From Planctomycetota bacterium (GTDB taxonomy: Bacteria; Planctomycetota; JBDREB01): 53,372 bases of DNA. The stretch spans positions 1-53,372 of the forward strand of contig JBDREB010000391.1 of the NCBI GenBank assembly GCA_043820325.1, given 5' to 3'. The notes below the pieces were generated by a model. It worked only from the letters and a program-made list of their open reading frames with translations, made no database searches and had not been told where the DNA came from. The first letter of the stretch is position 1; each line of letters begins with the position of its first letter. Position numbers and translations under genes: made by a program. Shown in pieces: positions 2,980-20,041 of this stretch.

Positions 2980-5007
2980 TTGTTCGGATTGACTGAAATC
3001 TGGAGCATCGATATCGGTGCCTCGGCCATCAAGGCCATGAAGCTGGTCAAGATCAAGAACCAGGTGGTGGTGGCCGATTACGACACCGTCGATATCGCCG
3101 ACTTCGAGGGATTCGAGGGCGAGGCCGAGGACTTCCAATACGAGAAGATCAAGCGCGCGCTCCAGAACCTGGTGAACCGCAAACGCCTCCGGGATGTCCA
3201 GGTGGCCGTGGTCCTGCCCGGTCACACGGCCATGGTCAAGAAGATCCGTTTCCCCACCCCCGATGTCAAGGGGGTGGAGCGGATGATCGGCTTCGAAGCG
3301 GCCCAGCAGATCCCGTTCCCTCTCGAAGAGGTGGTGTGGGACTACCAGCTTCTGGGCGTATCCGAATCCGGGACCGAATACGAGGTCTCCCTCTTCGCGA
3401 TCAAGAAGGGGCTGGTCAACCGGTACCTGCAGATCCTCAAGGATGTCCAGCTCAAGGTGGAGATCCTCCAGGTCGCGCCCATGGCCCTCTACAATTTCGT
3501 GTTCTACGATGTCCCGCCGGCGAAGGGCGAGGATAATGTGATCCTGCTCTATGTCGGGGCGCACAACAGCGACCTCGTCATCTGTTCGGGACGGAACTTC
3601 CTCATCCGCAACATCCCCATCGGCGGCGAGGACATCACCAAGGCCTTCCAGCGCAAGTTCTCCGTCGGGTTCGACGAGGCCGAGAAGATCAAGCGCGAGA
3701 TCACCGATTCGAAACAGTCCCAGAAGCTCTTCGAGAAGGTGGTCGCGCCCATCATGAACGACCTGGTGGGCGACATGCAGCGCACCATCAACTTCTTCAA
3801 GTCGCAGAACCAGGGGGTCGAGTTCAACGGCATCATCACCTCGGGCGGTACCTTCCAGATGCCCGGCACGCTCCAGTTCCTGGCCGACCGGTTCCAGATC
3901 GGCGTCATCAACATCGACGAAATGGAACGGATCTCGGTCGGCATCCGCGATGTGGACGCCTTCTTCCATATCCTGCCGCGTATGCCCATGGCCCTTGGCG
4001 CGGGATTGCAGGCGCTCGGCGAAGGCCCGGTGACCGTCAACCTGCTCCCGGCCGATGTCCGCACGGCCAAGACCTATGAGCGGAAACGCCCCTACGCCAT
4101 CGTCGCCCTGATCGTGGTCATCATCACGCTGGTCCTGGGCATCTGGGTCGGCAAAAAGAAGGCCCGGTTCTACGATGGCGAGATCGGGATGTGGACCGAA
4201 TTGGTCGACGAGTCCCGCAAGTACGAGGCTGATTACACGAAGCTGGTCGGCCAGATCGAGCCGGTGAACGCCACCTGCCAGAAACTGGTGGGGCTCTCCA
4301 ACCTGCTGGAGGATGTCACGAGCGGCAAGGATGTGCCGGCCCGGTATGCCCATGTCCGGGCCCTGAACGGGATCTTCGGCACGGTCGCGAAGTTCAACGA
4401 TCCCGATGACGAGACCAAGTCCATCTGGATCGACGAATGTACCATCGAAAAGATGCCGCGGACCTGGGATGCGATCTACGAACGGATCGTCGCCGCGGCG
4501 CGGATCTCCGGGGACATGCCGCTCGGCTCGATCGAAAGCGTGATCGTGCCGCCGCAGCGGGCCGCGGCCGGCGGTGGTCCGCAAAGGCCCGGTATGCCCG
4601 GCCCGCCGGGGCGCATGTCGACCGAAAGCTCGGGTACCGCGTCGGGGGAGGAGGTCCTCTACTGCTACCTCAAGGGCCGCACCCGCCAGGGTAATGCCGA
4701 AGTGATCAAATTCATTGAAGTGGTCAACGAGTCGATGAGCGACATCCTCTTCTCCACCCCCAGCGGTGAGAATACGGTCGGCGGCCAGATGGTCTCAAGC
4801 TATACATTCGTGGAAAGCGCCACCGGCGTCATGCGCAGCGAGGCCGGCTCCGGCGTGGGGGCCGTCAGCGGGGGTAAAGAACAACGGGAATACATGGTGT
4901 TCAAGATCGTCTGGGTGGCGAAGCTGAAACCGGACGCGGCGGCCGCGTCCGTGGGTGCCGCCGCACCGGCCGGCGCCGGCGCCGTGATCAAGATCAGACA
5001 ACCGTAA
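2980..5007 (+). CDS. pilM: PilM-PilN fusion protein with long C-terminal extension (type IV pilus-like assembly platform)
   Basis: N-terminal actin-like PilM signature (IWSIDIGASAIKAMKL...). The PilN hallmark NLLP is at 4039-4050 (VNLLPADVR), followed by the TM helix YAIVALIVVIITLVLGIWVG. About 270 further residues have no recognised domain. AAGGAG lies 8 nt upstream of TTG 2980. Confidence 0.8.
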   Translation: MFGLTEIWSIDIGASAIKAMKLVKIKNQVVVADYDTVDIADFEGFEGEAEDFQYEKIKRALQNLVNRKRLRDVQVAVVLPGHTAMVKKIRFPTPDVKGVERMIGFEAAQQIPFPLEEVVWDYQLLGVSESGTEYEVSLFAIKKGLVNRYLQILKDVQLKVEILQVAPMALYNFVFYDVPPAKGEDNVILLYVGAHNSDLVICSGRNFLIRNIPIGGEDITKAFQRKFSVGFDEAEKIKREITDSKQSQKLFEKVVAPIMNDLVGDMQRTINFFKSQNQGVEFNGIITSGGTFQMPGTLQFLADRFQIGVINIDEMERISVGIRDVDAFFHILPRMPMALGAGLQALGEGPVTVNLLPADVRTAKTYERKRPYAIVALIVVIITLVLGIWVGKKKARFYDGEIGMWTELVDESRKYEADYTKLVGQIEPVNATCQKLVGLSNLLEDVTSGKDVPARYAHVRALNGIFGTVAKFNDPDDETKSIWIDECTIEKMPRTWDAIYERIVAAARISGDMPLGSIESVIVPPQRAAAGGGPQRPGMPGPPGRMSTESSGTASGEEVLYCYLKGRTRQGNAEVIKFIEVVNESMSDILFSTPSGENTVGGQMVSSYTFVESATGVMRSEAGSGVGAVSGGKEQREYMVFKIVWVAKLKPDAAAASVGAAAPAGAGAVIKIRQP

Positions 5008-5013
5008 GAAGAG

Positions 5014-6105
5014 ATGATGATGAAAAAACTATTCTGGATCATTTACGGCAGCGTGACCCTGGTAGTGCTGGCAGGCGGGATATTTGTCCTGCGGTCGGTC
5101 GACCAGACAAATGTGAAGTTGGACGGCCAATACCAAGAGAAGAAGTTGAATGCCGACAAGATTGAGGCCAAGATCAATGAAAACAAATTGCCGACCGGGG
5201 CCTGGCCCCAGTTGTTCCAGCGCCGACTGGAGGCTTTCCAGGGCCAGGAAGAGAAATTGAAGGGCCGCTTGAGCGGTTACAACGCCATTTTGAGCAAAAA
5301 GCTTCCCGGGTCCGGCCGGATCGAGCTTTTTGACGGGGAATTCAAGCAGGTCTGGGGTGAAATCCTCACCCACCTGCTGAAGGGCGGGTTTGAGGTCAGC
5401 AACGCCGCCGTCACCCTGGCCAACCTGTCCGAACAGTTCAACAGCGGCGCCCTGGCCCAGCCCCTTGGTATCAGCATGGGCTGGGTGGCGCAGGGCCGGG
5501 TCACGGCCGTCGCGCCCGAACAGCGCAAGACGGCCGAACTCCAGTACTGGCTCCAGGCGGCGCTCATCAAACATTTCATGGCGGCCGAGACCGCCAATGA
5601 ATGGGCCGCCTACGAGTATAAACGCAAGGAACCGGTGGCCGCGACCCCCGGCATGGATGGGGGCCGTCCGGCCGGCCGCCGGGGCATCACGGTCGATACG
5701 GAGAAGAAGGGACCGCCGCCGCCCGCCCTGGTCCGGATCGTGTTTGCCCCCCCGGAAGCGGTCGGCATGGAGAATCGGCGCGATTTTTCCGGCGCGGACG
5801 GTGAAGGCGTCAATTACATCACCAAGGGCGAGTTCACTGACGAGCATAATTTCAGCGCGGAATTCAAGGTGCGCCTGTCATCCCTGCCCGCGTTCATCAA
5901 CAACATCCTGGCCGATCCGGATGTGTTCTTCGTCATTGACGGGATCAGCACCAAGGCCATCATGCGCAGCGGCGAGGATGACAAGATCGCGCGCGATTTC
6001 AAGGGCCCCGTTTCGGCGGCCAAGGAACCCCCGGTCACCCTGTTCATCAAGGGCCGGGTGCTCTTTTTCGACTTTACCCGCCTGGCCGGTGGAGCCCCCC
6101 GCTGA
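5014..6105 (+). CDS. Bitopic membrane protein in the PilO position (N-terminal TM + coiled coil)
   Basis: 363-aa ORF 6 nt after the pilMN stop. It has the TM LFWIIYGSVTLVVLAGGIFVL and then a Lys/Glu-rich coiled-coil segment. The function call rests on position and architecture only. Confidence 0.6.
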   Translation: MMMKKLFWIIYGSVTLVVLAGGIFVLRSVDQTNVKLDGQYQEKKLNADKIEAKINENKLPTGAWPQLFQRRLEAFQGQEEKLKGRLSGYNAILSKKLPGSGRIELFDGEFKQVWGEILTHLLKGGFEVSNAAVTLANLSEQFNSGALAQPLGISMGWVAQGRVTAVAPEQRKTAELQYWLQAALIKHFMAAETANEWAAYEYKRKEPVAATPGMDGGRPAGRRGITVDTEKKGPPPPALVRIVFAPPEAVGMENRRDFSGADGEGVNYITKGEFTDEHNFSAEFKVRLSSLPAFINNILADPDVFFVIDGISTKAIMRSGEDDKIARDFKGPVSAAKEPPVTLFIKGRVLFFDFTRLAGGAPR

Positions 6106-6161: not shown

Positions 6162-8048
6162 ATGAAAAAGTTCATAGTGGCCCACTTCGAGAAGTTCCTC
6201 TTCGGGATCGTGGCCGTGGTCTGTCTGGCGCTTGTGATCCAGAACATCATGGTGATCGTGGCGATGCGCACCGACGCTCCCGCGCTCGAGGCGTTCCGCG
6301 CGAAGGTCAAGATCGCCGTTGAGGCCCCGACCACCCCGGCCATCGACCCCGTTCCCGATTACGCGGGGAGCATTGAGGAACGCCTGGTCGGCGGCAAGGT
6401 GGTCCGCCTGGCCCCCATCCCCGGCACCCAGGACCTGGCCTATAACCGTGAATTCCAGGAGAAGGTCCCGATCGATGAGCGGGTCCGGTTCGCCCTGCTC
6501 CCGCCCAAGGCCGCCACGATGGTGGTGAAGGCCGGCTACCAGGTTGTGCCGGCCGTGTTTGACAATGACGATACGGTGCCCGGGCTGGTGGTCAACACCA
6601 GCCGTTCCCAGACATCCACCGCGGAGGATTTTGACAAGCACGCGGCCGTGGTCTTCGCCGGGCTGGCCCAGCGCCGGCTGGTCCATGACGGCAAGAACGC
6701 CCTGACCGACACGCCGTGGGAGACGCTCACCGGCTCCGCGGCCGATCCGCGCTGGGCCGATCTCGAGGAACCCCTCACCACGACCTTCCTGCTCGTCGGC
6801 GGGGTCCCGTCCGTGACCGATGTTCCGGCCGCCGGGAGCAATCAACCGGTCGATGATCCCGACCGGTACGAGGGTGAACGCGACCGGATGTCCGGCCGTG
6901 GATCGCGCGGCCGTGGGGCCGAGGCCCAGGTCGCCACGGTCTCCCTGCAGTTCAATTGCGAAGATGCCGGTGTGGAGGCATGCAAGACCTATGCCTACCG
7001 GTTCGCCGTGGTCGCGGCCATGCAGAAGGGGGTGCGCCTCTTCCGGATCGCCTCCACGCCCGAGGACCTGGAACTGGACGAAGATGCCAAGCGCGAATTC
7101 AACCTTGACAAGTACGCCCCGGGCGATGCATTCATCGGCAACCCGACCATCGACAAGGCGGTCCTGGTCAATAAATTCAATGTGACCGGTCTGCCGGAGC
7201 TCAAGGCCCAGCCCGCGGCCGGGTCGGCCAAGCCCGACAAGGTGAAGGGCTCCAAGACGGACAAGACCGACGCCGGTGCGGTGGTCCCGTTCTATCTGGT
7301 CCGGTCCGAGTGGTCGGCCGAAACGACCGCCACGCCGATGCCTGACTCCGATGTCTACCTTTCGGGAGAGTTGGGCGGCGCGGTGGCGGTCTATATCGTG
7401 AAACACTACCGTTTTACTTACAAACGGCCCAAGGTTGACGATCCATACGGCGGTGGTGGGTATGGCCCTGAGCCGGGCGGTGCCGCCCCGGCACCCCGTC
7501 CGGAGGACATGATCGAAGAAACGGCTTGGGTTGAACTCCTCTTCAACTTCAGCCACATCGTGGGTGACCGGATCGGCAAGGAGGCCAGACTCCGCACGGT
7601 CGGCGGGACCAATTTCCCGGACAGGCAGAGTCGTCCCATCGATTTCACCACGCCGTGGGTGATCCAGGAACTGGGCCGCGGTGACCTGGTGGAAGAGCGG
7701 GAGATCGAGGATTGGATCAAGAACCCCGTAACAGGGGAACTGGAACTGAAGAAGATCAAAAAGCAGAACATCCAGACCGATGTGCTTTTTATGGTCATCC
7801 GCAACATCATCACCGACCAGACCGAGAAAAAGTGGCTCGTCGGCGGCGATGTGATCAACCGTCTCCGGGCAGCCGCCGCCGAGGCGGCCGCCCGTGTGGT
7901 GGCGCAGATCCAGGCGGCCCAGCAGAACACGGCGCCCCGGGCGCCGCGGTCTGGGCGCGAGGAGCGCCCGCCCGGTCCGACGGGTCCGTCGAAGGGACCG
8001 GGACCCAAGGGCCCCATTGATGAACGAGACCCTGTGATGGGGGATTGA
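6162..8048 (+). CDS. Bitopic membrane protein of unknown function (between the PilO-like gene and the secretin)
   Basis: 628-aa ORF. N-terminal TM FLFGIVAVVCLALVIQNIMVIV. Coding-like codon usage. Basic, Pro/Gly-rich C-terminus. No motif recognised. Confidence 0.6.
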   Translation: MKKFIVAHFEKFLFGIVAVVCLALVIQNIMVIVAMRTDAPALEAFRAKVKIAVEAPTTPAIDPVPDYAGSIEERLVGGKVVRLAPIPGTQDLAYNREFQEKVPIDERVRFALLPPKAATMVVKAGYQVVPAVFDNDDTVPGLVVNTSRSQTSTAEDFDKHAAVVFAGLAQRRLVHDGKNALTDTPWETLTGSAADPRWADLEEPLTTTFLLVGGVPSVTDVPAAGSNQPVDDPDRYEGERDRMSGRGSRGRGAEAQVATVSLQFNCEDAGVEACKTYAYRFAVVAAMQKGVRLFRIASTPEDLELDEDAKREFNLDKYAPGDAFIGNPTIDKAVLVNKFNVTGLPELKAQPAAGSAKPDKVKGSKTDKTDAGAVVPFYLVRSEWSAETTATPMPDSDVYLSGELGGAVAVYIVKHYRFTYKRPKVDDPYGGGGYGPEPGGAAPAPRPEDMIEETAWVELLFNFSHIVGDRIGKEARLRTVGGTNFPDRQSRPIDFTTPWVIQELGRGDLVEEREIEDWIKNPVTGELELKKIKKQNIQTDVLFMVIRNIITDQTEKKWLVGGDVINRLRAAAAEAAARVVAQIQAAQQNTAPRAPRSGREERPPGPTGPSKGPGPKGPIDERDPVMGD

Positions 8049-8091
8049 TATGCCAGTTAAACCCATGTGTTTATTTTTTGGAGGATTGCGT

Positions 8092-10635
8092 ATGCGGCAG
8101 GCGTGGATCGCTTTCTTGGCGCTCCTGTTGACGGGGGGATGGACCCTTGCTCAGGAGCTTACGGTGGAGGGGGACAACCAGGGCGCCCAGAATCTCCAGA
8201 AGGCCGTGGAGGAGATGGACAAGGTCACCCAGATGAACAAATCCTATGCCCGCAACTATCTTGAGATCGGCAAGACCCAATACGCGGCCTACCGTCTCGA
8301 GGAGTCCAAGGAAAATCTTAAACTCGCCCTGCGCTATGATCCTGAAATGCAGGAGGCCGCCGACCTGCTCGACAAGGTCATGGGCCTGCTGGGTGAACGG
8401 CCCAGCAAGGTGCGCTCCATGTACGACTGGGCCCTCCAGGAACACAAGGTCAAGGTCCAGCAACGCAAAATGGAGATGGAGAACCTGGTCGATCAGGGCC
8501 GGGCGCTCAATGCCAAGGGCGAGTACGCCGACGCGGCCGACAAGTTCGAGGCCGCCCTCCAGATCCACCGCTGGATGCCCTACAGCATGGAATTCCCCGA
8601 GCTGAAAAAAGAAGCCCAGTCGGGTTATGACGACGCCAAGAAGAAGGCCGATGACGAGGCCATCAACGATCGCAAGCGTCGGCAGGAAAAGGCCCAGAAC
8701 GAGGCCATCATCCGGCTCAGGAAGGAGCAGGAGCTCGAGGAGCGCCGGATCCAGGGGCTGTTCGACCGTATGAAGAACGCCTACTACAACAAGAGCGATT
8801 TCGACCTCGCCGAAAAGCTGGCCGATGAGATCCTGAACATCGATCCCAATAACAAGCTCGCCTGGGAGTGGAAGTGGGAAGCCAAGGCCAAGCGGCACAA
8901 CCAGAAACGCTCGATCATCCGCCAGCAGGACAAAGAGGAGGTCGAGAGCCTCAACGAGTACCTGGACGAATCCATGATCCCCCAGACCGCGCTCATCCAG
9001 TATCCCAAGGGCTGGTTGGACCGGGTCAAGGGCCGTTCGGCCCCCGGTATCGGCATGGCCAATGATCCCGAGTGGAAGATGAAGATCATCGACCTGATGG
9101 AGAAGAAGGTCTCCTTCGACTTCCTCGAGACCCCGCTGGAGCAGGTGGTGCAGTTCCTCTCCCGCGTCACCGGCATCACCATCGTGCTCGACCCGGCCGC
9201 CCTGGTCGATGACATGGGCACCCCGGTCCCCAAGAATGTGACCCTGCGCGTGGATAATATGCGCTTTTCATCGGCCCTGAACTGGATCCTTCGCCTGACC
9301 GACCTCAAAATGTCCCTCCGTGACGAGGCGATCTTCATCGGCAAGAACATCGATACCGAGGCGGCCCTGCGCATTTACGATGTGCGCGACCTCACCGTTC
9401 AGCCCCAGGACATGCCCGGCCCGAACATCGAGCTCGTTTCCGGCGAGGCCGACATCTCCATTTCCTCGTTCGATGAAGGGGCCGATACGATCGACGCCCA
9501 GGCCATCAGCGAGCTCATCCAGGGCAGCGTGGCCCCCGAGATCTGGACCCAGCAGGATACGCGGGTCGGCATCGAAGTGAGCGGCGGCAAGCTCGTGGTC
9601 ACGGCCCCCGACCGCGTCCACGAACTGATCCAGCAGCTTTTGGACAACTTCCGCCAGCAGAATGTGTTGCAGGTGAATGTCTACTGCCGCTTCCTGACAG
9701 TGGCTGACAATTTCGCCGACGACATCGGCGTCTCCATCCGCAACTGGAACACCCGCGACCAGGAGATCCCCGGCGTGGGCAACATTTTCACGCCGAACGG
9801 GACCGGTACGATCCCGACCGCCACCGATGCGTTCGCCAACCCGTCCCATCCGGCCATGAGCGCGAATGGCGCCCTGTCCCAATTCGAGGTCTATCCCGTC
9901 AGCCCGGCGGGTTGGCCGGCGTGGGACCAGGGCTTCGTGGGTGTCAACACCAATTTCTACAACCGGTTGATCACGGACAACCCCGTCGGGCAGTTGAATA
10001 CCGGCCTGTGGTTCGACTACCATGTCGACGGTGGCGTCACCGCCGATTTCACCCTGCACGCGGTCGAGGCCACCCAGACCGGCCGCACGCTCGCGGCACC
10101 GCGGTTGACGGTGTTCAACAACCAGCGCGCGCATATCATGGTGGTCACCCAGCATGCGTATGTCCGCGATGTGACCCCCGTTGTGGCCGAGGCATCCACG
10201 AGCTTCGACCCCGAGATCGACACCTACACCACGGGCACGGTGCTTGACATCCGTCCCACGGTCTCGAGCGACCGCAAGTATATCACGCTTGAAGTGCGCC
10301 CCACCCGCGCCGAGCTGCATGTCCAGCCCGTGCGCGGCTACACGGTCACAGGCGCGGCCTACAATGTACAGTCAACCGCCATAATCGAGATGCCCGAGAT
10401 CACGATCCATCGTGTCCGCACCAATGCCGTCATCCCCGATGGCGGCTCGATCATCCTGGGCGGCATGAACTCGGTCTGGAAACAGCATATGCGCCAGGGT
10501 ATCCCGTTCCTTTCCCATATCCCGTTCCTGGGCCGCCTCTTCAGCCGCGATGTCACTTCCGACCAGAAAGAAACGCTGCTGATCATGATCACCTGCAACA
10601 TCACCCTCTTCCAGGAATTGGAAGCCGAACTGTAA
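8092..10635 (+). CDS. Secretin (PilQ/GspD family) with ~330-aa TPR/coiled-coil N-terminal extension
   Basis: Signal peptide MRQAWIAFLALLLTGGWTLAQ. N0-like segment KKVSFDFLETPLEQVVQFLSRVTGITIVLDP. C-terminal secretin core ending IPDGGSIILGG ... GIPFLSHIPFLGRLFS. GGAGGA lies 5 nt upstream of ATG 8092. ATG 8050 is an alternative start. Confidence 0.85.
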   Translation: MRQAWIAFLALLLTGGWTLAQELTVEGDNQGAQNLQKAVEEMDKVTQMNKSYARNYLEIGKTQYAAYRLEESKENLKLALRYDPEMQEAADLLDKVMGLLGERPSKVRSMYDWALQEHKVKVQQRKMEMENLVDQGRALNAKGEYADAADKFEAALQIHRWMPYSMEFPELKKEAQSGYDDAKKKADDEAINDRKRRQEKAQNEAIIRLRKEQELEERRIQGLFDRMKNAYYNKSDFDLAEKLADEILNIDPNNKLAWEWKWEAKAKRHNQKRSIIRQQDKEEVESLNEYLDESMIPQTALIQYPKGWLDRVKGRSAPGIGMANDPEWKMKIIDLMEKKVSFDFLETPLEQVVQFLSRVTGITIVLDPAALVDDMGTPVPKNVTLRVDNMRFSSALNWILRLTDLKMSLRDEAIFIGKNIDTEAALRIYDVRDLTVQPQDMPGPNIELVSGEADISISSFDEGADTIDAQAISELIQGSVAPEIWTQQDTRVGIEVSGGKLVVTAPDRVHELIQQLLDNFRQQNVLQVNVYCRFLTVADNFADDIGVSIRNWNTRDQEIPGVGNIFTPNGTGTIPTATDAFANPSHPAMSANGALSQFEVYPVSPAGWPAWDQGFVGVNTNFYNRLITDNPVGQLNTGLWFDYHVDGGVTADFTLHAVEATQTGRTLAAPRLTVFNNQRAHIMVVTQHAYVRDVTPVVAEASTSFDPEIDTYTTGTVLDIRPTVSSDRKYITLEVRPTRAELHVQPVRGYTVTGAAYNVQSTAIIEMPEITIHRVRTNAVIPDGGSIILGGMNSVWKQHMRQGIPFLSHIPFLGRLFSRDVTSDQKETLLIMITCNITLFQELEAEL

Positions 10636-10723
10636 TTTTCATCGATCGGATCTGAATGCACGGCGTTCTCATCCGTTAGTGTTCTTTGGCAGTGGACTTT
10701 GAATTACGATCTGTCACAAAGGG

Positions 10724-10994
10724 CAGATTTCCTGATCCCGGCGGAAAATGCTTTGGCACTTTTTGGCGTCAGCCAGGCGCGTGAATCAACCATAGGCCGG
10801 TTTGGGTGGTTAGGGGCGGGTTTGAAACCCGCCCTTTATTGCCGTTTCGCGATTAGACGGGAGGGCGGGTTTCAAACCCGCCCCTACACGGTTGACATCC
10901 GGATGTTCCCCGTACAATCACCTGCGGGTCGAAAAAAGTGCCAAACCTTTTTCCGAAAAACATGACCGGTTACGGATAGGGATCAGGAAATCTG
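10724..10994 (+). mobile_element. MITE-like non-autonomous element, copy B (271 bp)
   Basis: Same 16-bp TIRs as copy A (10724-10739 and 10979-10994). A different 5-bp duplication, AAGGG, flanks it (10719-10723 and 10995-10999). Same orientation as copy A. Confidence 0.85.
10892..10918 (+). promoter_or_regulatory. Sigma70-like hexamer pair inside MITE copy B, reading toward the TPR/ExbBD genes
   Basis: TTGACA (10892-10897), 15-nt spacer, TACAAT (10913-10918), 90 nt upstream of ATG 11008. Confidence 0.3.
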
Positions 10995-11007
10995 AAGGGG
11001 ATCGATA

Positions 11008-11817: not shown

Positions 11818-14800
11818 ATGAGATGTGTACTTGCGTGGTGTTGTGTGCTGGTACTGGTGCTGGCCGCGTCGGCCGGCGCCAAGCACGATGACATCCAGTT
11901 CGCCATTTCTTTGAACGATGCCGGCTATACCTGGATGGCGCTCCAGGAGCTCGAGCGGATGGAACAGGACGGCACGGTCAACGAAAAGGCACTGAGCCTT
12001 CTCGTGCGTGGAAGGATCTTTGAAAAGCAGGGCGATCTCCGCCGCCGTGACCAGTCTTTTGAGGCTTTTCTCAAGGCGGCGGCCGGCAGTAACGATCTGC
12101 TGGTCAAAGCCGAGGCCGAAAAGATCCAGGGGCGCACCTGGGATAACAAAGAACAGACCCTCGTCAAACTCGCCAATGATATCGACAACCTTTTGGGGGA
12201 TGCCGGCAAGGATACGGCCAGGATCAAACAGCTCCAGAGCGATGCCCGCCGGACCGGCGACGAGATCCTGCGGTATCGCCGCGGTATCACCAAGGGGTTC
12301 GATGCCAGGCAGGTGAAGGATGGCCAGCTCACTGAACCCGAACAGGTCGAATCCGACCGGGCCGAGTTCGCCCTCGCCCAGACGCTCTATTACTTCAGTT
12401 TCGCCTTCAAGGGCGACGACGAGAAGACGCGCAAGGAGCTGCTCAAGGAGGCCAAGGATTCCCTGTCGACCCTGGCGTTCCTGTATGAAGGCCAGGTGAT
12501 CCTGATCTCGTTCTTTGCGGGCATGGTGGGATGGGAGACCGAGGACTACAACGACGCGGGGCTCCAGTTCCAGAAGTGCATCGATTTCGAAGCGTCCCCG
12601 GAGAACCGGGATGTCCGGCGCGAGTCCTATTTCCGGGGTACCGAGGCGTATTACAAGATCAAGAGGTACAAGGATTGCGCCGAGACCGCCTTCTATTATG
12701 TGGCCCGCGCCAAGGTTGAGTTCACCGGGGCCGGCGACCGGACCGACATGCGCAGCCAGACCATCCGGTTGAACCTGGCCCAGTCGCTCTACTTCATGGA
12801 ACCGGCCGATTACGAGGGAATCAAAACGCTGTTCAACTTCGCCGGTACCCGCGAGGAAGAGGCGATCAAGATCGTCATTCAGATCGAAGCGGAGAATGGA
12901 CCCCGTTCCAAGGATGCCCGCCAACGGCTGGCCGAGTGGGCCAGGGGCCCCGTGAAATACATCGCCGAAGGGGTGGAGGCCTTCCTCCGCAAGGAATACG
13001 ACAAGGCGATCACGGCCCTGCAGAAGGGGCTGAAGGAGATGCCGGCCAGGCTCACCGTTGAAGAACGCATGTCGGTGGTGGCCAAGGCCTGGTATTACCT
13101 GGGGTTCGCCTACTACCACCAGGGCATGCGCCTGCCGGCGATCATCTGCTTCAAGGAGGGGACGACCCGCTTCATGCAGGATTTCCGCGAACGGGGCGAA
13201 CGCTTGAGCACGGAGCAGAAGCAGTGGTTCCTGCACAACCGCGACAACTGGCGCAGCGTGGCCAGCATGTACTATCGCGATACCAGGTCGGACCTGGCGC
13301 TGGATGTCTTCAAGGAGGCCCTGATCGCCTACGGCCAGATCTCGACCGGGGAGGAAGAGGAAGGCGGCAAGAACATGAATTTCCTCCTGGGCGTGATCCT
13401 CGAACAGAACGAGGAGTATGCCGAGGCGAGCATCGAATTCCAGAAAGTGCCCAAGACCGATCCTGATTATCTGCGGACCCGCCTTCACATCGCCCAGTGC
13501 CAATGGCAGAAATTCATCAAGGACGGGGAAAAGGATAAGCGGCTGGCCGATGAGGCCTTCAAGGTCTTCGATGAAGTCGAGAAGGCGTTCAAGGATCAGC
13601 TGGCGGCCGCCACCGACGCCGCCGACAAGGTGGAGATCGAACTGCAGCTGGCCAACCTGTACGGCCGCAAGATCCCCATGCTTTACAAGGTCGAGAAATA
13701 CCAGCAGATCATTGACGACATCGACCGGTTCTGGCAGCAGCCGCCCAAGTCCAAGGTCACCCGGGCCCTGGCCCTGCGCTACCAGATCATGGCGCCGATC
13801 AAGATCGGCACCGGCGATGATGACGCGGGCCTCAACCGCAAAGTGGCCCACCTGCTCAAAGGGCGCGCTCTGCTGGAGACCCTGAAACAGGAGGCGCCCG
13901 AGGACGAGTACATCGTCAAGCTGATGAAGAACCTGGGCTACACCTTCTTCAATTACGCGGTCAAGGGCCGGGGCCAGGAGGCGACCGCCGCCGCGGCCAC
14001 GCAGGCCATGGATGCCGCCGGCGCGTTGCTTTTCGATTTCGTGGAAAACGCCAAGGATGTGGAGGACGCCGTGCTCCGCGATGCGGCCGACATCCTCTAC
14101 GACCGGGTCCAGGATTATGTCCGTTCCGAGAAGGTGACCCAGAAACTGCTGGCCCGGTACGCGCCCTTGGTCGACGGCAAATACCCGCCCAACGACGAGG
14201 CCACCCTCAAGGCGTTGGATGAAATCAAGGTCAAAATGTTCGACCGGGCCGAAACGCGCGCCGTTTGGGAGAAGTTCGTCGACCGGATGTATGACGGCAA
14301 GGGGAAGGATGGCACCCTGCACGACTATGTCTACTTTTCCGGCATCAAGCAGGAATACTGGGAGGAAAAGCCCTGCAACTACGAGTACGCGCTGGTCCAG
14401 TTCAGCGAGGCGGTGATGGCCGAGCTTGGGCTGGGCCCCGACGCCCGCGCCAAGCGCGCCGCATTGCGCGACTCCGCCAAGTCGGACGATGAGCGCGGGT
14501 TCTGGACCGACCTGTTCAAGGAATTCAAGACCGCCACGAACAAGGACCCCCAGCCGCTCGTGGACATGGTGACTTTCCTTAAGAACCGGATCACGGTCAA
14601 CAATTTCAAGGAGCGGCTGGCCAAGTGCTGCCGGAACAACAACAAGCCGCAGGAGGCGCTGGCCATCCTGGAGGAGCTTGACCGTTACTACATCTTCCTC
14701 CCCGACCCCAAGTGGGCCCTGGCCGATGTGTATCTCGACCTCGCCAAGGCGACCGGCAACGCCGATGAAAAGACCAGCCAGGCCATGAAGGCCAAGGACC

Positions 14801-15048
14801 TCTGTGTCTGGATCGAGACTTATGCCCCGCCCACGGACGAAGGCATGCTCGATTATTGGAAAGCGGTCATGGCCGGGGCCGATGTGTGGGGCTTCCTGGA
14901 AAAATACAAGTTTGCCGTGGACAAGCTCGAACAGGCGGTCAAATACGGCCGTTTCGAGTTCCCGAACGAGGAGATCAAGAAGCGGTTCTATGCGCTTTTA
15001 GAGAAATATAAGAAATTGCTTGAATCTGCAGGGGGGGTCAAACCATGA
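11818..15048 (+). CDS. Large exported TPR-repeat protein (1076 aa)
   Basis: Signal peptide MRCVLAWCCVLVLVLAASAGA. It has repeated helical A/Y/L-rich TPR-like units throughout and strong coding-like codon usage. Confidence 0.8.
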   Translation: MRCVLAWCCVLVLVLAASAGAKHDDIQFAISLNDAGYTWMALQELERMEQDGTVNEKALSLLVRGRIFEKQGDLRRRDQSFEAFLKAAAGSNDLLVKAEAEKIQGRTWDNKEQTLVKLANDIDNLLGDAGKDTARIKQLQSDARRTGDEILRYRRGITKGFDARQVKDGQLTEPEQVESDRAEFALAQTLYYFSFAFKGDDEKTRKELLKEAKDSLSTLAFLYEGQVILISFFAGMVGWETEDYNDAGLQFQKCIDFEASPENRDVRRESYFRGTEAYYKIKRYKDCAETAFYYVARAKVEFTGAGDRTDMRSQTIRLNLAQSLYFMEPADYEGIKTLFNFAGTREEEAIKIVIQIEAENGPRSKDARQRLAEWARGPVKYIAEGVEAFLRKEYDKAITALQKGLKEMPARLTVEERMSVVAKAWYYLGFAYYHQGMRLPAIICFKEGTTRFMQDFRERGERLSTEQKQWFLHNRDNWRSVASMYYRDTRSDLALDVFKEALIAYGQISTGEEEEGGKNMNFLLGVILEQNEEYAEASIEFQKVPKTDPDYLRTRLHIAQCQWQKFIKDGEKDKRLADEAFKVFDEVEKAFKDQLAAATDAADKVEIELQLANLYGRKIPMLYKVEKYQQIIDDIDRFWQQPPKSKVTRALALRYQIMAPIKIGTGDDDAGLNRKVAHLLKGRALLETLKQEAPEDEYIVKLMKNLGYTFFNYAVKGRGQEATAAAATQAMDAAGALLFDFVENAKDVEDAVLRDAADILYDRVQDYVRSEKVTQKLLARYAPLVDGKYPPNDEATLKALDEIKVKMFDRAETRAVWEKFVDRMYDGKGKDGTLHDYVYFSGIKQEYWEEKPCNYEYALVQFSEAVMAELGLGPDARAKRAALRDSAKSDDERGFWTDLFKEFKTATNKDPQPLVDMVTFLKNRITVNNFKERLAKCCRNNNKPQEALAILEELDRYYIFLPDPKWALADVYLDLAKATGNADEKTSQAMKAKDLCVWIETYAPPTDEGMLDYWKAVMAGADVWGFLEKYKFAVDKLEQAVKYGRFEFPNEEIKKRFYALLEKYKKLLESAGGVKP

Positions 15049-16154
15049 AGCATCTGACCGCGGTTTTGTGCCTCCTGGCCGCGTGCGCGGCCGCCGACAC
15101 CCTCTTTCTCAAGGGCCAGCCCGCGGGCATCGAAGTCGTTGTGAGCAAGGATGCCTGGGACAAGCTCGTCTATGTGGTCGAAGACACCACGCTTACGGCA
15201 AACTGGGACACCGTGGAGAAGGTGGAGTACAAGACCTACCGCGGCAGCGCCTTCGAAAAGGCCGATCTCTACTTCAGCAAGGGGGGCTTTGAGGAAGCCC
15301 TCAAGGAATACGCCAACGCGGTCAAGAATATGCGCGACAAATGGGTGAAGCCGCAGGGGCTTTACAAAAGCGGCCTCTGCCTCTTCAATCTCGGGCGGTA
15401 TGCCGATGCCGTCCGGGTGTTCGAGGCGGCCGCCGCCGAGGCGGAGAACCGGTACGAGCCCGACGCCCTGCAGAAGGCGGGTGAATGCTATCTGCGCATC
15501 AAGGATTATCCCAAGGCCAAGGAACTTCTCAGCCGGATCACCGAACAGAAATACGGCCCCAACCGGTCGAGCTTCGCCAACGCCCTGATGGTCGACCTCA
15601 AGTTCGAGTCCGGGGATTATGACGGCGCCCTGGCCGATTACGGCCGGATCGTCGCCAAACTGGCCGACAAGCTCGACCTCAACCGGATCGGCATCGAGAT
15701 CAAAATGGCCGTCTGCACCGCCCGCAAGGGCGCGGCCGCGCCGGCCCGGACCAGTCTGGAGGACTGTGTGGCGCGCTTGGTGAATGGCCGCGACCGCCGC
15801 AAGTACGCCGGCGCCGAGGTCGCCCTCGCCGCCGCGCTGGCCGAGGCCTACAACGCGATCGGCAACACCTGGTTCGACGCCCAGCCCCGTGATGCCCAGG
15901 CGGCCCTGCGCGCCTACCTGCACACGGCGGTCACCTACCGGACGGCGCGGGGTCCGGCCGTGGTCGAAGCTTCGTTCAAGGCGGCCCAGTGCTTTGTGGA
16001 GCTTATGGCCGCCGGGATCGACGCCCCGGAGATCAGGGGCCAGATGATCGCCCGGACACGGGAATTGCTTGACCAGGCCCGCGAGCTTTACGCGGGACAG
16101 ACCGGTATTCTCCGGAAGATCAATGAAGTGGCCGACCAGGTTCCATCGAAGTAA
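15045..16154 (+). CDS. TPR-repeat lipoprotein (369 aa)
   Basis: The start overlaps the previous stop (ATGA). Lipobox LAAC in MKHLTAVLCLLAACAAAD. TPR-like units such as YFSKGGFEEALKEYANAV and FNLGRYADAVRVFEAA. Confidence 0.75.
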   Translation: MKHLTAVLCLLAACAAADTLFLKGQPAGIEVVVSKDAWDKLVYVVEDTTLTANWDTVEKVEYKTYRGSAFEKADLYFSKGGFEEALKEYANAVKNMRDKWVKPQGLYKSGLCLFNLGRYADAVRVFEAAAAEAENRYEPDALQKAGECYLRIKDYPKAKELLSRITEQKYGPNRSSFANALMVDLKFESGDYDGALADYGRIVAKLADKLDLNRIGIEIKMAVCTARKGAAAPARTSLEDCVARLVNGRDRRKYAGAEVALAAALAEAYNAIGNTWFDAQPRDAQAALRAYLHTAVTYRTARGPAVVEASFKAAQCFVELMAAGIDAPEIRGQMIARTRELLDQARELYAGQTGILRKINEVADQVPSK

Positions 16155-16179: not shown

Positions 16180-16947
16180 ATGCGGCATTGGTTGAAATTG
16201 ACGCTGGCTGGTGTGGTGATCGCCATGGTCGCCGGACTGCTTTGGGGCGGTGTGGTCTACGCGCAGGATCCGGCCCCCGCGGCGGCACCCGCCGGCGGCG
16301 CGGCCGCGGCAACGACCACCAGCGGGACCGGGCACAAGAAGATGGGTTTGATCGACGACATCAAGGCCGGCGGCATCGTGGGCGCGTGCATCATCCTGCT
16401 CTCCGTCGCCGGACTGGCCCTGGCGATCGAGAATTTCGTCACCCTGAAGGTCGAGACCTTCATTCCCCAGCCGCTCCTTCTGGAGTATGAGGAACTCCTC
16501 GATGCGCAGAATTACGATGAGGCCCTGACCATCGGCGAATCGGACGATTGCATGCTCGCGCGCGTGCTCACCGCCGGGCTCCTCAAGCGGGAACGGGGAT
16601 TCGCCTCCATGGAACTGGCGATCAACGACGCGGTGAACTACGAGGTCGAGAAACTCCAGCGCAAGATCGCGCTTATCGCTTTCATCGCCAACATCGGCCC
16701 CATGCTCGGCCTGTTCGGCACGGTGACCGGTATGCTTGCGGCGTTCAATGTGATCGCAACGGTCGAGAACCCCGTGCCCGCCGACCTGGCCTACGGTATC
16801 GCCCAGGCGCTTGTGACCACGGTCGAAGGCCTGTGCGTGGGCATTCCCATGGGTACCTGCTACTTTTTCCTCCGCAATCGGGTGGCGCGCATTGCCAATG
16901 AGATCTACCTGGTTTCGTCTGATTTTCTGGATCGGTTCCGTACTTGA
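16180..16947 (+). CDS. exbB: MotA/TolQ/ExbB-family proton channel
   Basis: Core motifs IANIGPMLGLFGTVTGM and AQALVTTVEGLCVGIP. AAGGAG lies 8 nt upstream of ATG 16180. An N-terminal signal-like segment plus an Ala/Pro/Thr spacer precedes the core. Confidence 0.85.
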   Translation: MRHWLKLTLAGVVIAMVAGLLWGGVVYAQDPAPAAAPAGGAAAATTTSGTGHKKMGLIDDIKAGGIVGACIILLSVAGLALAIENFVTLKVETFIPQPLLLEYEELLDAQNYDEALTIGESDDCMLARVLTAGLLKRERGFASMELAINDAVNYEVEKLQRKIALIAFIANIGPMLGLFGTVTGMLAAFNVIATVENPVPADLAYGIAQALVTTVEGLCVGIPMGTCYFFLRNRVARIANEIYLVSSDFLDRFRT

Positions 16948-16976
16948 TTCGGGCGGATTGTCGAGGAGCGTAAGCC

Positions 16977-17423
16977 ATGGCACATAAACAGGCCCTCACG
17001 GAGATGTCAGCCGATATGGACATGACGCCCATGATCGATGTCGTGTTCAACCTGATCATCTTCTTCATGCTCGTGAGCCATTTTTCGAGCCAAGTCCTTT
17101 CGGCGGACATCATCCTGCCGGTGGCGACCGAATCGATCAACGATGCGGGCGCCAAACGGCTGGTTCTCAATGTCACCAAAAGCGGCGATTACCGGATCAT
17201 GGGCGTGAAGTATCCGCCCGAGATCATCAAGAACAAGATCCGCGCCTACGGCATCCTGAAGACCGTGGATTACCAGGGGATGCAGATCTCCGACATGAAG
17301 GTGATGATCCGGGCCGACCGCCGGACCCCGTATAAAAATGTGCAGAATGTCTATTTCATGCTCCAGGAGGGCATGATCTGGCAGGTCTGTTTCGCGACCC
17401 TGAAATCTCCGAAGGGGAAGTGA
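16977..17423 (+). CDS. exbD: ExbD/TolR-family protein 1
   Basis: DMTPMIDVVFNLIIFFM N-terminal TM signature, 148 aa. Confidence 0.85.
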   Translation: MAHKQALTEMSADMDMTPMIDVVFNLIIFFMLVSHFSSQVLSADIILPVATESINDAGAKRLVLNVTKSGDYRIMGVKYPPEIIKNKIRAYGILKTVDYQGMQISDMKVMIRADRRTPYKNVQNVYFMLQEGMIWQVCFATLKSPKGK

Positions 17424-17424
17424 T

Positions 17425-17949
17425 ATGGCACGCCGCCGCAGTTCCAGACCGGATTACGAAGCCAAAATGGACATGACGCCCATGATCGACTGCGTCTTCC
17501 TGCTCCTCATCTTCTTCATGTGCGCCACCAAATTCAAGACCTTGGATTACCGGCTCGACGCCTCCCTGCCCAAGGACAAGGGATTGCGTGATGTCCAGGT
17601 GAAGCCGCCCAAGGAGATCCCCGAGTTCCGGATCACCATCGATGCCATCCCGGGCGCGCCGGAGAACGCCTTTCCGCGGGCCACCTTCCGCATCGGCCGC
17701 GACTCCATGGTCAGCCTGCAGAACCTGAACCAGATGATTCAGACGGAATACTGGGTCATCAAGAACGACGCGCGCTACCAGGGGGAGAAGATCCCCGCCG
17801 TGGTCGATGGTCAGGCGGACGCCGATTTCGAGTATGTGGTCATGGCGATCAATGCCTGCGTCAATGCCCGCGTGGACGAGATCAATTTCGCCCCGCCCAT
17901 TCCGGATGCCATTCGGGCCCGCATGGGCAAGGTGTCGAGCAAGGATTAA
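17425..17949 (+). CDS. exbD: ExbD/TolR-family protein 2
   Basis: DMTPMIDCVFLLLIFFM signature, 174 aa. It starts 1 nt after the previous stop. Confidence 0.85.
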   Translation: MARRRSSRPDYEAKMDMTPMIDCVFLLLIFFMCATKFKTLDYRLDASLPKDKGLRDVQVKPPKEIPEFRITIDAIPGAPENAFPRATFRIGRDSMVSLQNLNQMIQTEYWVIKNDARYQGEKIPAVVDGQADADFEYVVMAINACVNARVDEINFAPPIPDAIRARMGKVSSKD

Positions 17950-17980
17950 ACGGCCGTCCGGCTGATCGAGAGGTATTCGT

Positions 17981-19216
17981 ATGAAGCGCATCGGCGTTCT
18001 GGCGTGGTGCCTGCTGGTCGCTGTCTGGGCGCATGGCCAGGTCGAGTTCGACACCATCTACAAGTTTCCCGACAAGAAGGGCGAAACGATCAAGGTCATC
18101 CGCGGGATCGTCACCGCCGAATCGAAGACCGAGGTCAAGTACAAGATCGCCGAAGGCCAGGAAAAGACGATCGAGGCCGAACTGGTCTCCAAGGTCGTCT
18201 ATATCGCCCGGGGCGGCGATGCGGTCGCCAAGGCGCAGGAAAAGGTCGCCAAGGGGCTGGCCGAGTTCGACAAGGGCGGTTTCGAGGAGGCCACCACCAT
18301 TCTGGGGGCGGCCATCAAGGATGCCGAGGCCAACCCGCGCCTGCCCGAATGGATCGGCGCCTATGCCCGTTTCCATACCGGCCTGGCTTTTCTGCGGCTG
18401 GGCCAGGAGATGGAAAGCAAGGGGATCGCCCAGGTCCTGGTCAAACGCCGCTATGAGAGCGCGGTGAAATCCTTCGATGACTTTGCGGCCAAGCATCCGA
18501 CCCATCGGCTCCAGTTCGACCTGCCCGTGGCCCAGGCCACCGCGCTTTTGAAATTGGGGGCGGAGCAGTATGACAAGGCCTTGGCCCTGTTGGACGGGGT
18601 CCCGTCGGGCGCCCGCAACCCGTATGCCCAATTACGGCGGTTCAACGCCCTGAAACTCAAGGGGGACATCCTGGTGCTGAAGGGGCGGAACGACCAGGCC
18701 CTCGACGCCTATAAGGAACTCATGCGCGCCATGCCCGCCGAAAATCCGATCGACGAGGTGGTGGGCATCCGCCAGGATGTGGGCGTGTTCATCGGCATGG
18801 TCCTGCTCAAGAAGGCCGAGGACAGCAGCGATGCCACCTCTTACAAGGATGCGGAGGAGTATTTCGGCAAGATCCTGGCCGATGTCGCGGCCACGGGCGT
18901 GACGGTCCGCAGTCTCGGCAAAGTCTACCTTTCCATCGGTGAATGCCGGCGCGCGGCCAAGGATTGGGAAAAGGCGATGTGGTACTACCTGCACGGGTGC
19001 ATCGCCTTTTTCGATGATCCGGAAGTCCATCGGGAATCGCTCCTGAATGTCATCATCTGCCTGGATGAACTGGTTCAGAAGACCCAGGACCGCGACAAGA
19101 AAAAGCAGCTCATGGATTCACTGGCCGAGTATTACCGCCAGTTGAAGCTTGGGTACGGGGCGACCCCGGCCGCCATGAAGGGCGGTACCATCTACAAGAA
19201 GTATTTCCCCAATTAA
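17981..19216 (+). CDS. Exported TPR-repeat protein (411 aa)
   Basis: Signal peptide MKRIGVLAWCLLVAVWAHG. TPR-like units (FDKGGFEEATTILGAAI, LKLGAEQYDKALALL, LKGRNDQALDAYKELM). Confidence 0.75.
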   Translation: MKRIGVLAWCLLVAVWAHGQVEFDTIYKFPDKKGETIKVIRGIVTAESKTEVKYKIAEGQEKTIEAELVSKVVYIARGGDAVAKAQEKVAKGLAEFDKGGFEEATTILGAAIKDAEANPRLPEWIGAYARFHTGLAFLRLGQEMESKGIAQVLVKRRYESAVKSFDDFAAKHPTHRLQFDLPVAQATALLKLGAEQYDKALALLDGVPSGARNPYAQLRRFNALKLKGDILVLKGRNDQALDAYKELMRAMPAENPIDEVVGIRQDVGVFIGMVLLKKAEDSSDATSYKDAEEYFGKILADVAATGVTVRSLGKVYLSIGECRRAAKDWEKAMWYYLHGCIAFFDDPEVHRESLLNVIICLDELVQKTQDRDKKKQLMDSLAEYYRQLKLGYGATPAAMKGGTIYKKYFPN

Positions 19217-19219
19217 GCC

Positions 19220-20041
19220 ATGCGATCGTTGCACGGATGGATGGGGTTGTGCGCGGTCCTGGCCGTCATCGGCGTCATACCGCTGACCTACGGGGAGAAC
19301 ACCCCCGCGGCTCCGCCGGTCGCACCCGCCCCGGCCGTCACGCCGCCGGCAACGCGGCCTGTCGCCCCGCCGGAAGCGCCGCCTGCTCCGCCGACCGTTG
19401 TCTACCTGGATGAAGCCCGGACCGTCAAGGTCGATCTGCAGGCCAAGACCCTGGAGATCCCCGCAGCGGTGGTCCAGAGGGGCGGCATCATTGAATTGGC
19501 GCTCTGCAGCACCATCTCCCCCAACGCCCGGTCGCATGAAAGCTGCTTCACCACACCTGTGCCGCCGAGCCTGGTCCACGCCGGCCTGAATCTGCTCGGG
19601 CTCAAGGAAGGCAAGCCGGCCGCGTTCGCCGGCCAGGAAGCCCTGCCCACGGGGGCGCAGGTGTTCGTGTATGTGATCTGGACGGCCAAGGCGGAGGACG
19701 GGACCGAGACCTCCCGCCGGGTGCGCCTGGAGGACCTGATCTTCAACCGGCTGACCCAGGAACCCATGATGCGGGTGGCATGGATCTTCTGCGGATCGAG
19801 CATGTTCAAGAACAAGGAAGGTCGTGAGATCTACGAGGCTGATGCCGAGGGCACGGTGATTTCCACCTGGCGGTGCACCACCACGGTGCTGGACAACCCG
19901 CTGCCCGAAGGAAGCGACGATACGGTATTCTTTTCCCTCAAGGAGGCCATGCCTCCCCTGGGTACCCCCGTAACCTTCCTTTTCTCGCCCGTAGACCTTG
20001 ACCCTCCGGACGAACAAAAGGAAAAGGGACCGGTTGAATAA
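19220..20041 (+). CDS. Exported protein of unknown function (possibly YdjY-like)
   Basis: 273-aa ORF. N-terminal hydrophobic signal, a Pro/Ala-rich linker, then a globular part (QRGGIIELALCSTIS...HAGLNLLGLKEG). The family call is from memory only. Confidence 0.6.
   Translation: MRSLHGWMGLCAVLAVIGVIPLTYGENTPAAPPVAPAPAVTPPATRPVAPPEAPPAPPTVVYLDEARTVKVDLQAKTLEIPAAVVQRGGIIELALCSTISPNARSHESCFTTPVPPSLVHAGLNLLGLKEGKPAAFAGQEALPTGAQVFVYVIWTAKAEDGTETSRRVRLEDLIFNRLTQEPMMRVAWIFCGSSMFKNKEGREIYEADAEGTVISTWRCTTTVLDNPLPEGSDDTVFFSLKEAMPPLGTPVTFLFSPVDLDPPDEQKEKGPVE

Follow-up and report, generated by a model that had tools for sequence, protein, structure and literature searches.

A secretin–PilM gene block adjoining a tetratricopeptide-repeat–ExbB–ExbD–ExbD block in an uncultured branch of Planctomycetota: a candidate envelope-spanning apparatus

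We analysed a 53,372-nt contig of a Planctomycetota bacterium (JBDREB010000391.1, assembly GCA_043820325.1; the window, in what follows), in which a run of co-directional genes at positions 2980-20041 places a secretin and a PilM-type membrane platform next to tetratricopeptide repeat (TPR) proteins, ExbB and two ExbD paralogues. The G+C content of the window is 60-69%, and every convincing gene in it lies on the + strand. There are 12 genes within 2980-20041, or 12 to 13 with a polytopic membrane-protein gene just beyond. They are spaced by -4 to 56 nt, the sole exception being a 372-nt gap that carries a miniature inverted-repeat transposable element (MITE) and separates two blocks. Block 1 comprises a fusion of a PilM domain with a transmembrane (TM) helix, two bitopic proteins and a secretin whose N-terminus is TPR-like. 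Block 2 comprises four exported proteins, three of them with TPR matches, together with ExbB and two ExbD, and is followed by a gene for a YdjY-domain protein. Domains were called with Pfam and NCBIfam, TM helices with a hydropathy scan and PDB matches with profile searches; an Rfam search of the window gave no RNA family matches. The features of the cluster are as follows.

2980..5007, + strand: PilM actin-like domain, one TM helix (residues 373-391) and a periplasmic part of ~280 amino acids (aa); PF11104, 2e-37
5014..6105, + strand: bitopic 363-aa protein with an N-terminal TM helix, predicted long helices and a beta/alpha C-terminal part, from its topology
6162..8048, + strand: bitopic 628-aa protein with a Pro/Gly-rich periplasmic part, from its topology
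8050..10635, + strand: secretin with a helical TPR-like N-terminus of ~300 aa, N0/N1-like domains and a C-terminal secretin domain; PF00263, 3e-29
10723..10995, no strand assigned: MITE-like element of ~275 bp between the blocks, with 16-nt terminal inverted repeats CAGATTTCCTGATCCC
11008..11784, + strand: exported 258-aa protein, lineage-specific, which in diverged form partly duplicates the N-terminus of the 1076-aa protein
11818..15048, + strand: exported 1076-aa TPR protein; TPR_2, 6e-10, and other TPR matches
15045..16154, + strand: TPR protein of 369 aa whose signal peptide is lipobox-like (LLAAC); TPR matches
16180..16947, + strand: proton channel subunit of the ExbB/TolQ family, its N-terminus bearing a signal-like segment; PF01618, 6e-25
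16977..17423, + strand: ExbD paralogue 1, 148 aa, TM Asp present; PF02472, 1e-17
17425..17949, + strand: ExbD paralogue 2, 174 aa, TM Asp present; PF02472, 2e-14
17981..19216, + strand: exported 411-aa TPR protein; Pfam TPR matches, present in the related loci L001-L003
19220..20041, + strand: exported YdjY-domain protein of 273 aa, a recurrent accessory gene; NF040466, 2e-33

The initial annotation had counted 14 co-directional genes over this interval, where our recount gives 12. Its inventory of block 1 (a PilM-bearing fusion, two bitopic proteins and a secretin) is present as it had been placed, and the PF01618 and PF02472 matches bear out the ExbB and the two ExbD. Exported TPR proteins of 258, 1076, 369 and 411 aa had also been described; three of them have TPR matches, and the 258-aa protein has none. 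What had been called a PilM-PilN fusion does contain a PilM domain (PF11104), whereas the label PilN, and likewise PilO, reflects membrane topology only. The MITE reported in the 372-nt gap is a genuine mobile-type repeat with a second copy in the window.

That the two blocks belong together is well supported by comparison of related loci, and their link goes past inherited adjacency. Relatives were reached with ExbB, the best-conserved protein, as anchor, through genome contexts and a scan of Joint Genome Institute (JGI) metagenomes; all loci were annotated with hidden Markov models (HMMs) built from the cluster, and ~10 kb was examined on each side of the queried ExbB or secretin gene. The blocks stay adjacent in relatives well beyond the close ones, as the synteny check proposed in the initial annotation had called for. 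The close relatives L001-L003, whose secretins are 61-65% identical to that of the window, keep the whole order from the kinase gene upstream to the PHP gene downstream, and only 21-35 nt separate the secretin from the next gene in L002 and L003. The order secretin, large protein, TPR protein, ExbB, ExbD, ExbD is found in ten loci (the window, L001, L002, L003, L008, L009, L010, L015, L017 and L095). In the distant members L008, L009, L010, L015, L017 and L095, ExbB is 41-46% and the full-length secretin 26-31% identical, and a large protein of 950-1050 aa and a TPR protein of ~350-450 aa lie between secretin and ExbB; L008 also has the PilM fusion and the two bitopic genes upstream. A second TPR-secretin follows ExbD2, directly or one gene later, in L010 (11959-14679), L015 (12209-15148) and L095 (11731-14364), at the place where the window has the 411-aa TPR and YdjY-domain proteins, and two tandem TPR-secretins lie upstream in L009 (1-3916); a second secretin is thus present in four of the ten linked loci. 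Across the clade, similarity can no longer be detected for the large TPR protein or for the bitopic proteins.

When 90 ExbBs are placed in a neighbour-joining tree, those linked to a secretin all group in a single clade. Among informative loci, defined as those with enough upstream sequence, a secretin is present in 10 of the 11 within this clade and in none of the 24 outside it (Fisher p = 6e-8, uncorrected for phylogeny). The linkage thus characterises a single deep branch of Planctomycetota that has yet to be cultured.

The PilM fusion is the most readily classified protein of block 1. It scores 150 bits against TIGR01175 (cutoff 133), which places it within the type IVa pilus (T4aP) PilM family, and matches Myxococcus xanthus PilM in PDB 3jc8 at 9e-31. 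Its best NCBIfam match is Amuc_1101_fam, NF045709, with 232 bits over model positions 6-442 of 608 (cutoff 650), and its fused PilM-TM topology resembles that of GspL and MshI. The 363-aa protein, to judge by position and topology only, may be PilO/GspM-like; it has orthologues in L001, L003 and L008, no match in Pfam, NCBIfam or the PDB profiles, and an AlphaFold2 (AF2) single-sequence model that is unusable at a predicted local distance difference test score (pLDDT) of 37.8. By position only, the 628-aa protein may be PilP/GspC-like; it has no Pfam or NCBIfam match, and the PDB profile search gave only a weak Fn3-like match (E 0.1). Where the N-terminal TM helix meets the cytoplasm, its orthologues (window 6162-6260, L001, L003, L008 and L010) share a conserved His followed by charged residues (HFEK, HLRR, HWEK), a His placed differently from the TM His of TonB and TolA. 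HMMs of the two bitopic proteins, of the C-terminus of the PilM fusion and of the large TPR protein gave matches confined to close relatives.

The secretin most likely starts at 8092, giving a protein of 847 aa. It scores 99.5 bits against the PilQ model TIGR02515 (cutoff 284) and has no AMIN match, and thus falls outside the PilQ type; it lies below the NCBIfam cutoffs for PilQ, GspD and MshL, and against the Amuc_1098 family NF042912 it reaches 86 bits (cutoff 750). Weak Pfam TPR matches occur in its N-terminal part. An AF2 model built from six sequences is weak overall (pLDDT 51.7), with residues 60-300 helical at pLDDT 75-88, and Foldseek with this model returned PilQ/GspD and TPR superhelices; the model supports a helical N-terminus and a secretin fold, and only these. 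Full-length homologues in L008, L009 and L010 retain 26-31% identity with the N-terminal part included. Clustered at 50% identity, the TPR-secretin family amounts to 1461 clusters with E<=1e-30; the best 150 of these align over nearly the whole profile, and the named members looked up are either 'hypothetical protein' entries of Planctomycetota metagenome-assembled genomes (MAGs) or carry generic automatic JGI secretin labels. A contig scan with N-terminal peptide patterns from the secretin alignment found three loci, namely one frameshifted Pirellulales locus and two unrelated secretins. A segment of ~155 residues of the TPR-like N-terminus (profile positions 34-189) also occurs, with 47-61% identity, in two Planctomycetota von Willebrand A-domain (VWA) proteins of ~1000 aa, P0007 and P0009; the module therefore seems to be shuffled among envelope proteins.

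In block 2 the genes around ExbB are conserved in position more than in sequence. The 1076-aa TPR protein diverges fast, with 36-39% identity in L001-L003, and a word-based search with it found only three proteins; a gene for 950-1120 aa nevertheless occupies its position in most linked loci, including L008, L010, L015, L017 and L095. The family of the 369-aa TPR protein always lies directly 5' of ExbB, and its HMM aligns end to end with the gene 5' of ExbB in L008, L009, L010, L017, L019 and L027, and partially with that in L021. ExbB most likely starts at 16180, giving 255 aa as in the public record. Its scores of 42 bits against TIGR02797 (exbB; cutoff 206) and 70 bits against tolQ (cutoff 221) are low, and because the former is below the TIGR02797 cutoff it is not a canonical equivalog. 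The two-ExbD layout is common to all linked loci. Downstream of it the clusters differ: the 411-aa protein, a distant paralogue of the 369-aa protein (BLASTP 22% over 307 aa, E 5e-6), is followed by the YdjY-domain gene in the window; a YdjY-domain gene also lies 3' of ExbD2 or of the TPR gene in L002, L008 and L017, directly after ExbD2 in L008 and L017, and L009 has neither a YdjY-domain gene nor a secretin at this point.

The 372-nt gap between the blocks is peculiar to the window among its close relatives. The second copy of the MITE, at 147-423 upstream of the kinase gene, is ~96% identical and has the same 16-nt terminal inverted repeats. Each copy contains two internal 21-nt GC-rich palindromes, with TTTATT after the first, and because of this sequence the element may act as a terminator. 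In L001, L002 and L003 there is no MITE at the inter-block position, where the gaps are 127, 35 and 21 nt. The 258-aa protein encoded next to the element resembles the first ~150 residues of the 1076-aa protein (BLASTP 28% over 154 aa, E 1e-8); its gene is absent in L001 and L003, and L002 has an unrelated 399-aa gene at that place. The position of this gene beside the MITE and its absence from L001 and L003 suggest a lineage-specific rearrangement tied to the insertion.

Several components expected of a pilus or Ton system are absent from the neighbourhood. In any frame of the 53-kb window we found neither a T2SE-type Walker A nor a prepilin N-terminal motif, nor any pilin-like open reading frame (ORF), and among the window ORFs scanned there were no Pfam matches to T2SE, T2SF, TonB_C or TonB-dependent receptors. 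The initial annotation had reported the absence of a PilB/PilT/GspE ATPase, PilC/GspF platform, prepilin and prepilin peptidase, and likewise of a TonB-like gene and a TonB-dependent receptor, and these observations hold over the same span. No gene for an ATPase, platform protein, prepilin or prepilin peptidase was called in the flanks of L001, L003, L008, L009, L010 and L095, and no TonB_C or TonB-dependent receptor was found among the cluster proteins of L008-L012. TolA, TolB and Pal/OmpA-type proteins are absent from the window cluster, and TolA, TolB, Pal and TonB from the related clusters. A TonB-like candidate 5' of the Blastopirellula module, picked up by an S-x3-H-x6-L motif, was dropped, as Pfam identifies it as a VWA (BatA-like) protein. 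Classical pilMNOPQ-type operons also normally lack pilB, pilC and pilA, so the absence of PilB, PilC and pilin genes from one 53-kb contig says little. It is through the PilM domain that the ATPase in the cytoplasm and the platform are docked, its partner in known systems being PilB, PilT or PilC. Its retention argues for a cytoplasmic partner, and the reading of the locus as ATPase-less, which the initial annotation had put forward, is therefore not supported; genes for a pilin and for a PilB-like ATPase may lie outside this contig.

Block 1 has the same gene order as the PilMNOPQ, MshI-J-K-L and GspL-M-C-D subcomplexes, with a PilM actin-like domain, bitopic partners and a secretin. Unlike those of the T4aP, MSHA pilus and type II secretion system (T2SS), it has no PilN, PilO or PilP matches and no AMIN domain, its secretin carries a TPR N-terminus, and no ATPase, platform or pilin gene lies nearby. 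Block 2 shares with the Ton, Tol-Pal and Agl-Glt systems an ExbB/TolQ channel and ExbD/TolR-type subunits that keep the TM Asp, and TPR proteins are associated with two of these systems, as CpoB/YbgF in Tol-Pal and GltD/E in Agl-Glt. It differs from all three in lacking TonB, TolA or a GltG/J-like transducer as well as a TonB-dependent receptor, TolB and Pal, in having two ExbD paralogues, and in being linked to a secretin as outer-membrane partner, which none of them uses. With Agl-Glt only the TolQR-like stator and TPR proteins are in common, and the secretin and PilM of the window argue against membership. Given the sub-cutoff scores (PilQ, GspD, MshL, ExbB, TolQ, YbgF, Amuc_1098 and Amuc_1101) and the missing TonB, TolA, TolB, Pal, receptor and pilin, the cluster falls outside the T4aP, T2SS, Ton, Tol-Pal and Agl-Glt systems as these are defined.

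The closest parallels are in Akkermansia, which like the window organism is a member of the PVC superphylum (Planctomycetes–Verrucomicrobia–Chlamydiae). The MUL2 locus there comprises Amuc_1099-1102, with Amuc_1101 PilM-like (MUL2B) and Amuc_1102 pilin-like (MUL2A) (PMC13174399). Amuc_1098, the Akkermansia secretin ('PilQ', 907 aa) that we group with this locus, carries three TPRs at its N-terminus and ends in a secretin domain (PMC4960237); in architecture, at a sub-cutoff family score, the window secretin matches this published description. The window also resembles MUL2 in its long PilM fusion, for which Amuc_1101_fam is the best if sub-cutoff NCBIfam match, and in having two poorly conserved small proteins between this fusion and the secretin; lacking any family-model match, these can be set beside Amuc_1099 and Amuc_1100 by position alone. 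It differs from MUL2 in that both scores are far under the curated cutoffs (232 vs 650 and 86 vs 750), the window has no pilin gene of the Amuc_1102 kind, and the locus runs directly on into TPR-ExbB-ExbD-ExbD. Block 2 in turn resembles MUL1 in its ExbB and ExbD (one PF01618 and two PF02472 matches). Mul1A is said to be a TPR protein. In MUL1, mul1B is amuc_0543 and mul1A is amuc_0544, with ExbD/B as expected components, and Mul1B is reported to lack homologues even in aquatic Akkermansiaceae (PMC13174399 supplement); Amuc_0546 is described as a 'biopolymer' transporter. According to several accounts, MUL1 and MUL2 mediate mucin transport and processing in Akkermansia (PMC13174399, PMC12570417, PMC12418764, PMC12928651), whose import of mucin requires both loci. 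The functional pairing of a pilus/secretin locus with an ExbB/D locus is what the two blocks have in common with MUL1 and MUL2; unlike the blocks of the window, MUL1 is unlinked from MUL2 in Akkermansia. The cluster looks like a MUL2-like and a MUL1-like module written as one unit. A further parallel, by layout only and not by sequence, is FSU_2396-2403 of Fibrobacter succinogenes, which encodes OmpA, TPR, TPR, ExbB, ExbD, ExbD and TonB family proteins, is up-regulated on cellulose and has been proposed to form an envelope polysaccharide-utilisation complex (PMC6851124). It shares the TPR-TPR-ExbB-ExbD-ExbD order with the window, from which it differs in having TonB-family and OmpA genes and no secretin or PilM.

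We hold with even confidence that the two blocks form one secretin apparatus assisted by the proton-motive force (PMF). Behind this stand the domain content, the tight, operon-like spacing of the genes, the promoter-like site ahead of the first gene and a gene order retained across Planctomycetota that have diverged deeply. On this reading the 12 to 13 co-directional genes would encode a single envelope-spanning apparatus of a Planctomycetes-Verrucomicrobia type. The TPR-bearing secretin would be its outer-membrane channel, and the PilM-TM fusion with the two bitopic proteins would form an alignment platform at the inner membrane and in the periplasm, as GspL-M-C or MshI-J-K do. A proton channel of ExbB5-ExbD1/ExbD2 type together with the exported TPR proteins would constitute a PMF-driven module, in which an ExbB pentamer and an ExbD1/ExbD2 heterodimer would convert the PMF into movement of the ExbD periplasmic domains. 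These domains could act on the TPR proteins, on the TPR N-terminus of the secretin or on both, replacing a TonB/TolA-type transducer, and their action would gate or pull on the channel or on a fibre within it. Since no TonB/TolA-like protein is found in these clusters, this movement could plausibly be received by the ~360-aa TPR lipoprotein, by the ~1000-aa TPR protein and by the N-terminal TPR part of the secretin; that the TPR proteins stand in for TonB is something we infer. By analogy, the task of the apparatus would most likely be the import of large substrates, such as glycans or proteins, into the periplasm, with export, fibre dynamics or assembly as less likely roles.

A number of observations weigh against a single apparatus. 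Bootstrap support for the ExbB clade is only moderate (22/40), and the Fisher test overstates independence because the loci are phylogenetically related. One locus inside the linked clade, L094 (4468-11709), encodes TPR1121, TPR373, TPR356, ExbB, ExbD and ExbD with no secretin within 10 kb; its module adjoins unrelated genes, and either the linkage was lost here or the module is a further, paralogous one. In the sister clade, cultured Rubripirellula and Blastopirellula have the order large protein, TPR, ExbB, ExbD, ExbD, also with no secretin within 10 kb, and a Pirellulales MAG has a cluster of PilM fusion and secretin with no ExbB within 10 kb. From L094 and the Pirellulales genomes it follows that the modules are separable and their adjacency not obligatory. 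Co-transcription of the blocks in the window is uncertain because the MITE with its GC-rich hairpins separates them. The likening of block 2 to MUL1 is based on descriptions of components rather than on sequence, and a function in import, export, pilus dynamics or assembly would be assigned by analogy.

It is possible, if unlikely, that two independent systems merely lie next to each other, one an outer-membrane and alignment subcomplex of a type IV pilus or T2SS whose ATPase, platform and pilins are encoded elsewhere, as the usual composition of pilMNOPQ-type operons would allow, and the other a Tol-Pal- or Ton-like system for envelope maintenance or uptake, with YbgF-like TPR proteins. The modules are indeed apart in L094, L011, L012 and L005, a MITE with terminator-like hairpins stands between them in the window, and the TPR proteins, the 369-aa protein among them, have weak tol_pal_ybgF matches (ybgF 36 bits, cutoff 90). 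Independence sits poorly, however, with an adjacency that persists down to 26-31% secretin identity and in 10 of the 11 informative loci of the ExbB clade, with gaps of only 21-35 nt in L002 and L003, with the ExbB-ExbD-ExbD genes lying between two secretin genes in L010, L015 and L095, and with the lack of TolA, TolB, Pal and TonB genes in every one of the clusters.

Alternatively, the TPR proteins and ExbBD could be assembly factors, the TPR lipoprotein serving as a pilotin of PilF/PilW/Tgl type and the PMF module helping to insert or anchor a very large secretin in an envelope as unusual as that of Planctomycetes. The lipobox-like signal peptide of the 369-aa protein and its weak type_IV_pilW match point in this direction, as does the likening of the Amuc_1098 TPRs to pilotins by the authors of the Akkermansia study (PMC4960237). 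We nevertheless consider it very unlikely, as the pilW score of 33 bits is far under the cutoff of 154, known pilotins need no ExbBD, and three to four TPR proteins with >2000 residues plus a two-ExbD stator far exceed known pilotin systems. Least probable of all is the strongest reading of the initial annotation, a secretin transporter that truly has no ATPase, runs on the PMF alone and lacks any pilin or filament, which would fit the lack of a T2SE Walker A, a T2SF match and a prepilin motif in the window and of such genes in the flanks of the six loci named above, but which is at odds with the conserved PilM domain and with the pilin-like Amuc_1102 of Akkermansia MUL2, and draws on absences that cover the 53-kb contig and those flanks.

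Further genes and a promoter-like site adjoin the cluster on either side.

642..1349, + strand: soluble histidine kinase with HisKA and HATPase_c domains (Pfam); an orthologue lies at the equivalent place in L001 and L003
1346..2761, + strand: NtrC/PilR-type response regulator with receiver, sigma54 AAA+ and HTH_8 domains; PF00158, 2e-69
2863..2890, + strand: sigma70-type promoter-like site 5' of the PilM-fusion gene, TTGACA-16 nt-TATAAT, 12/12 matches
19998..20603, + strand: conserved polytopic membrane protein of ~185 aa, just outside the cluster coordinates, its start probably near 20040

The kinase is a probable regulator of the cluster. The response regulator is 70-72% identical to its same-place orthologues in L001 and L003, and a sigma54 activator gene also adjoins the cluster of L009. 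Both promoter hexamers and a T-rich tract upstream of them are conserved in L001 and L003 (window 2762-2979; L001 4695-4899; L003 4858-4984). A search of the window for sigma54 promoters gave matches no more frequent than chance, with none upstream of the cluster and no convincing one elsewhere in the window; the regulator beside the cluster is a sigma54 activator, yet the conserved promoter-like site is of sigma70 type. At the other end, the polytopic membrane protein is 29% identical over 180 aa (E 1e-18) to the product of L001:20266-20823, and its position is filled in L001, L002 and L003, so that it may be the 13th gene of the cluster. Its gene overlaps a PHP ORF that is called too long and probably begins near 20609. 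Elsewhere in the window, 37895-42394 encodes a Ser/Thr kinase of 1499 aa that also carries TPRs and an AAA_16 (STAND-type) domain, near which lie an FHA-GAF histidine kinase, an extracytoplasmic function (ECF) sigma/anti-sigma pair and a DegP-like protease; this signalling-rich region is unrelated to the cluster.

Planctomycetes take up whole polysaccharides and proteins into the periplasm, a process that is abolished by the protonophore carbonyl cyanide m-chlorophenyl hydrazone (CCCP) and with which fibres from crateriform structures are associated (PMC5394234); its mechanism and components were still unknown according to a 2025 review (PMC12673574). The pairing kept in distant relatives and the likeness to the Akkermansia mucin loci make the cluster a candidate for this macromolecule-uptake machinery. 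It would be a bolder and quite unlikely proposal that the cluster is the genetic core of the planctomycetal uptake apparatus, that is, of the crateriform structures with their fibres, in which a TPR-secretin import gate would be energised through ExbB-ExbD1-ExbD2 and a TPR scaffold instead of TonB. If true, a secretin machine coupled to the PMF in this way would stand as a new class, which Verrucomicrobia would share as two separate parts, MUL1 and MUL2. Full-text literature searches turned up no account of a planctomycetal secretin with a link to ExbB/ExbD; the finding is not categorically new, because genetic work on Akkermansia has already paired a pilus locus functionally with an ExbBD locus. 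A deep Planctomycetota clade with both modules in one cluster provides independent genomic evidence for one machine, and it singles out specific genes as candidates, namely those for the TPR-secretin, PilM fusion, ~360-aa TPR lipoprotein, ExbB and ExbD1/2. Were the coupling direct, it would give the first example of a Ton/Tol-type stator that drives or gates a secretin.

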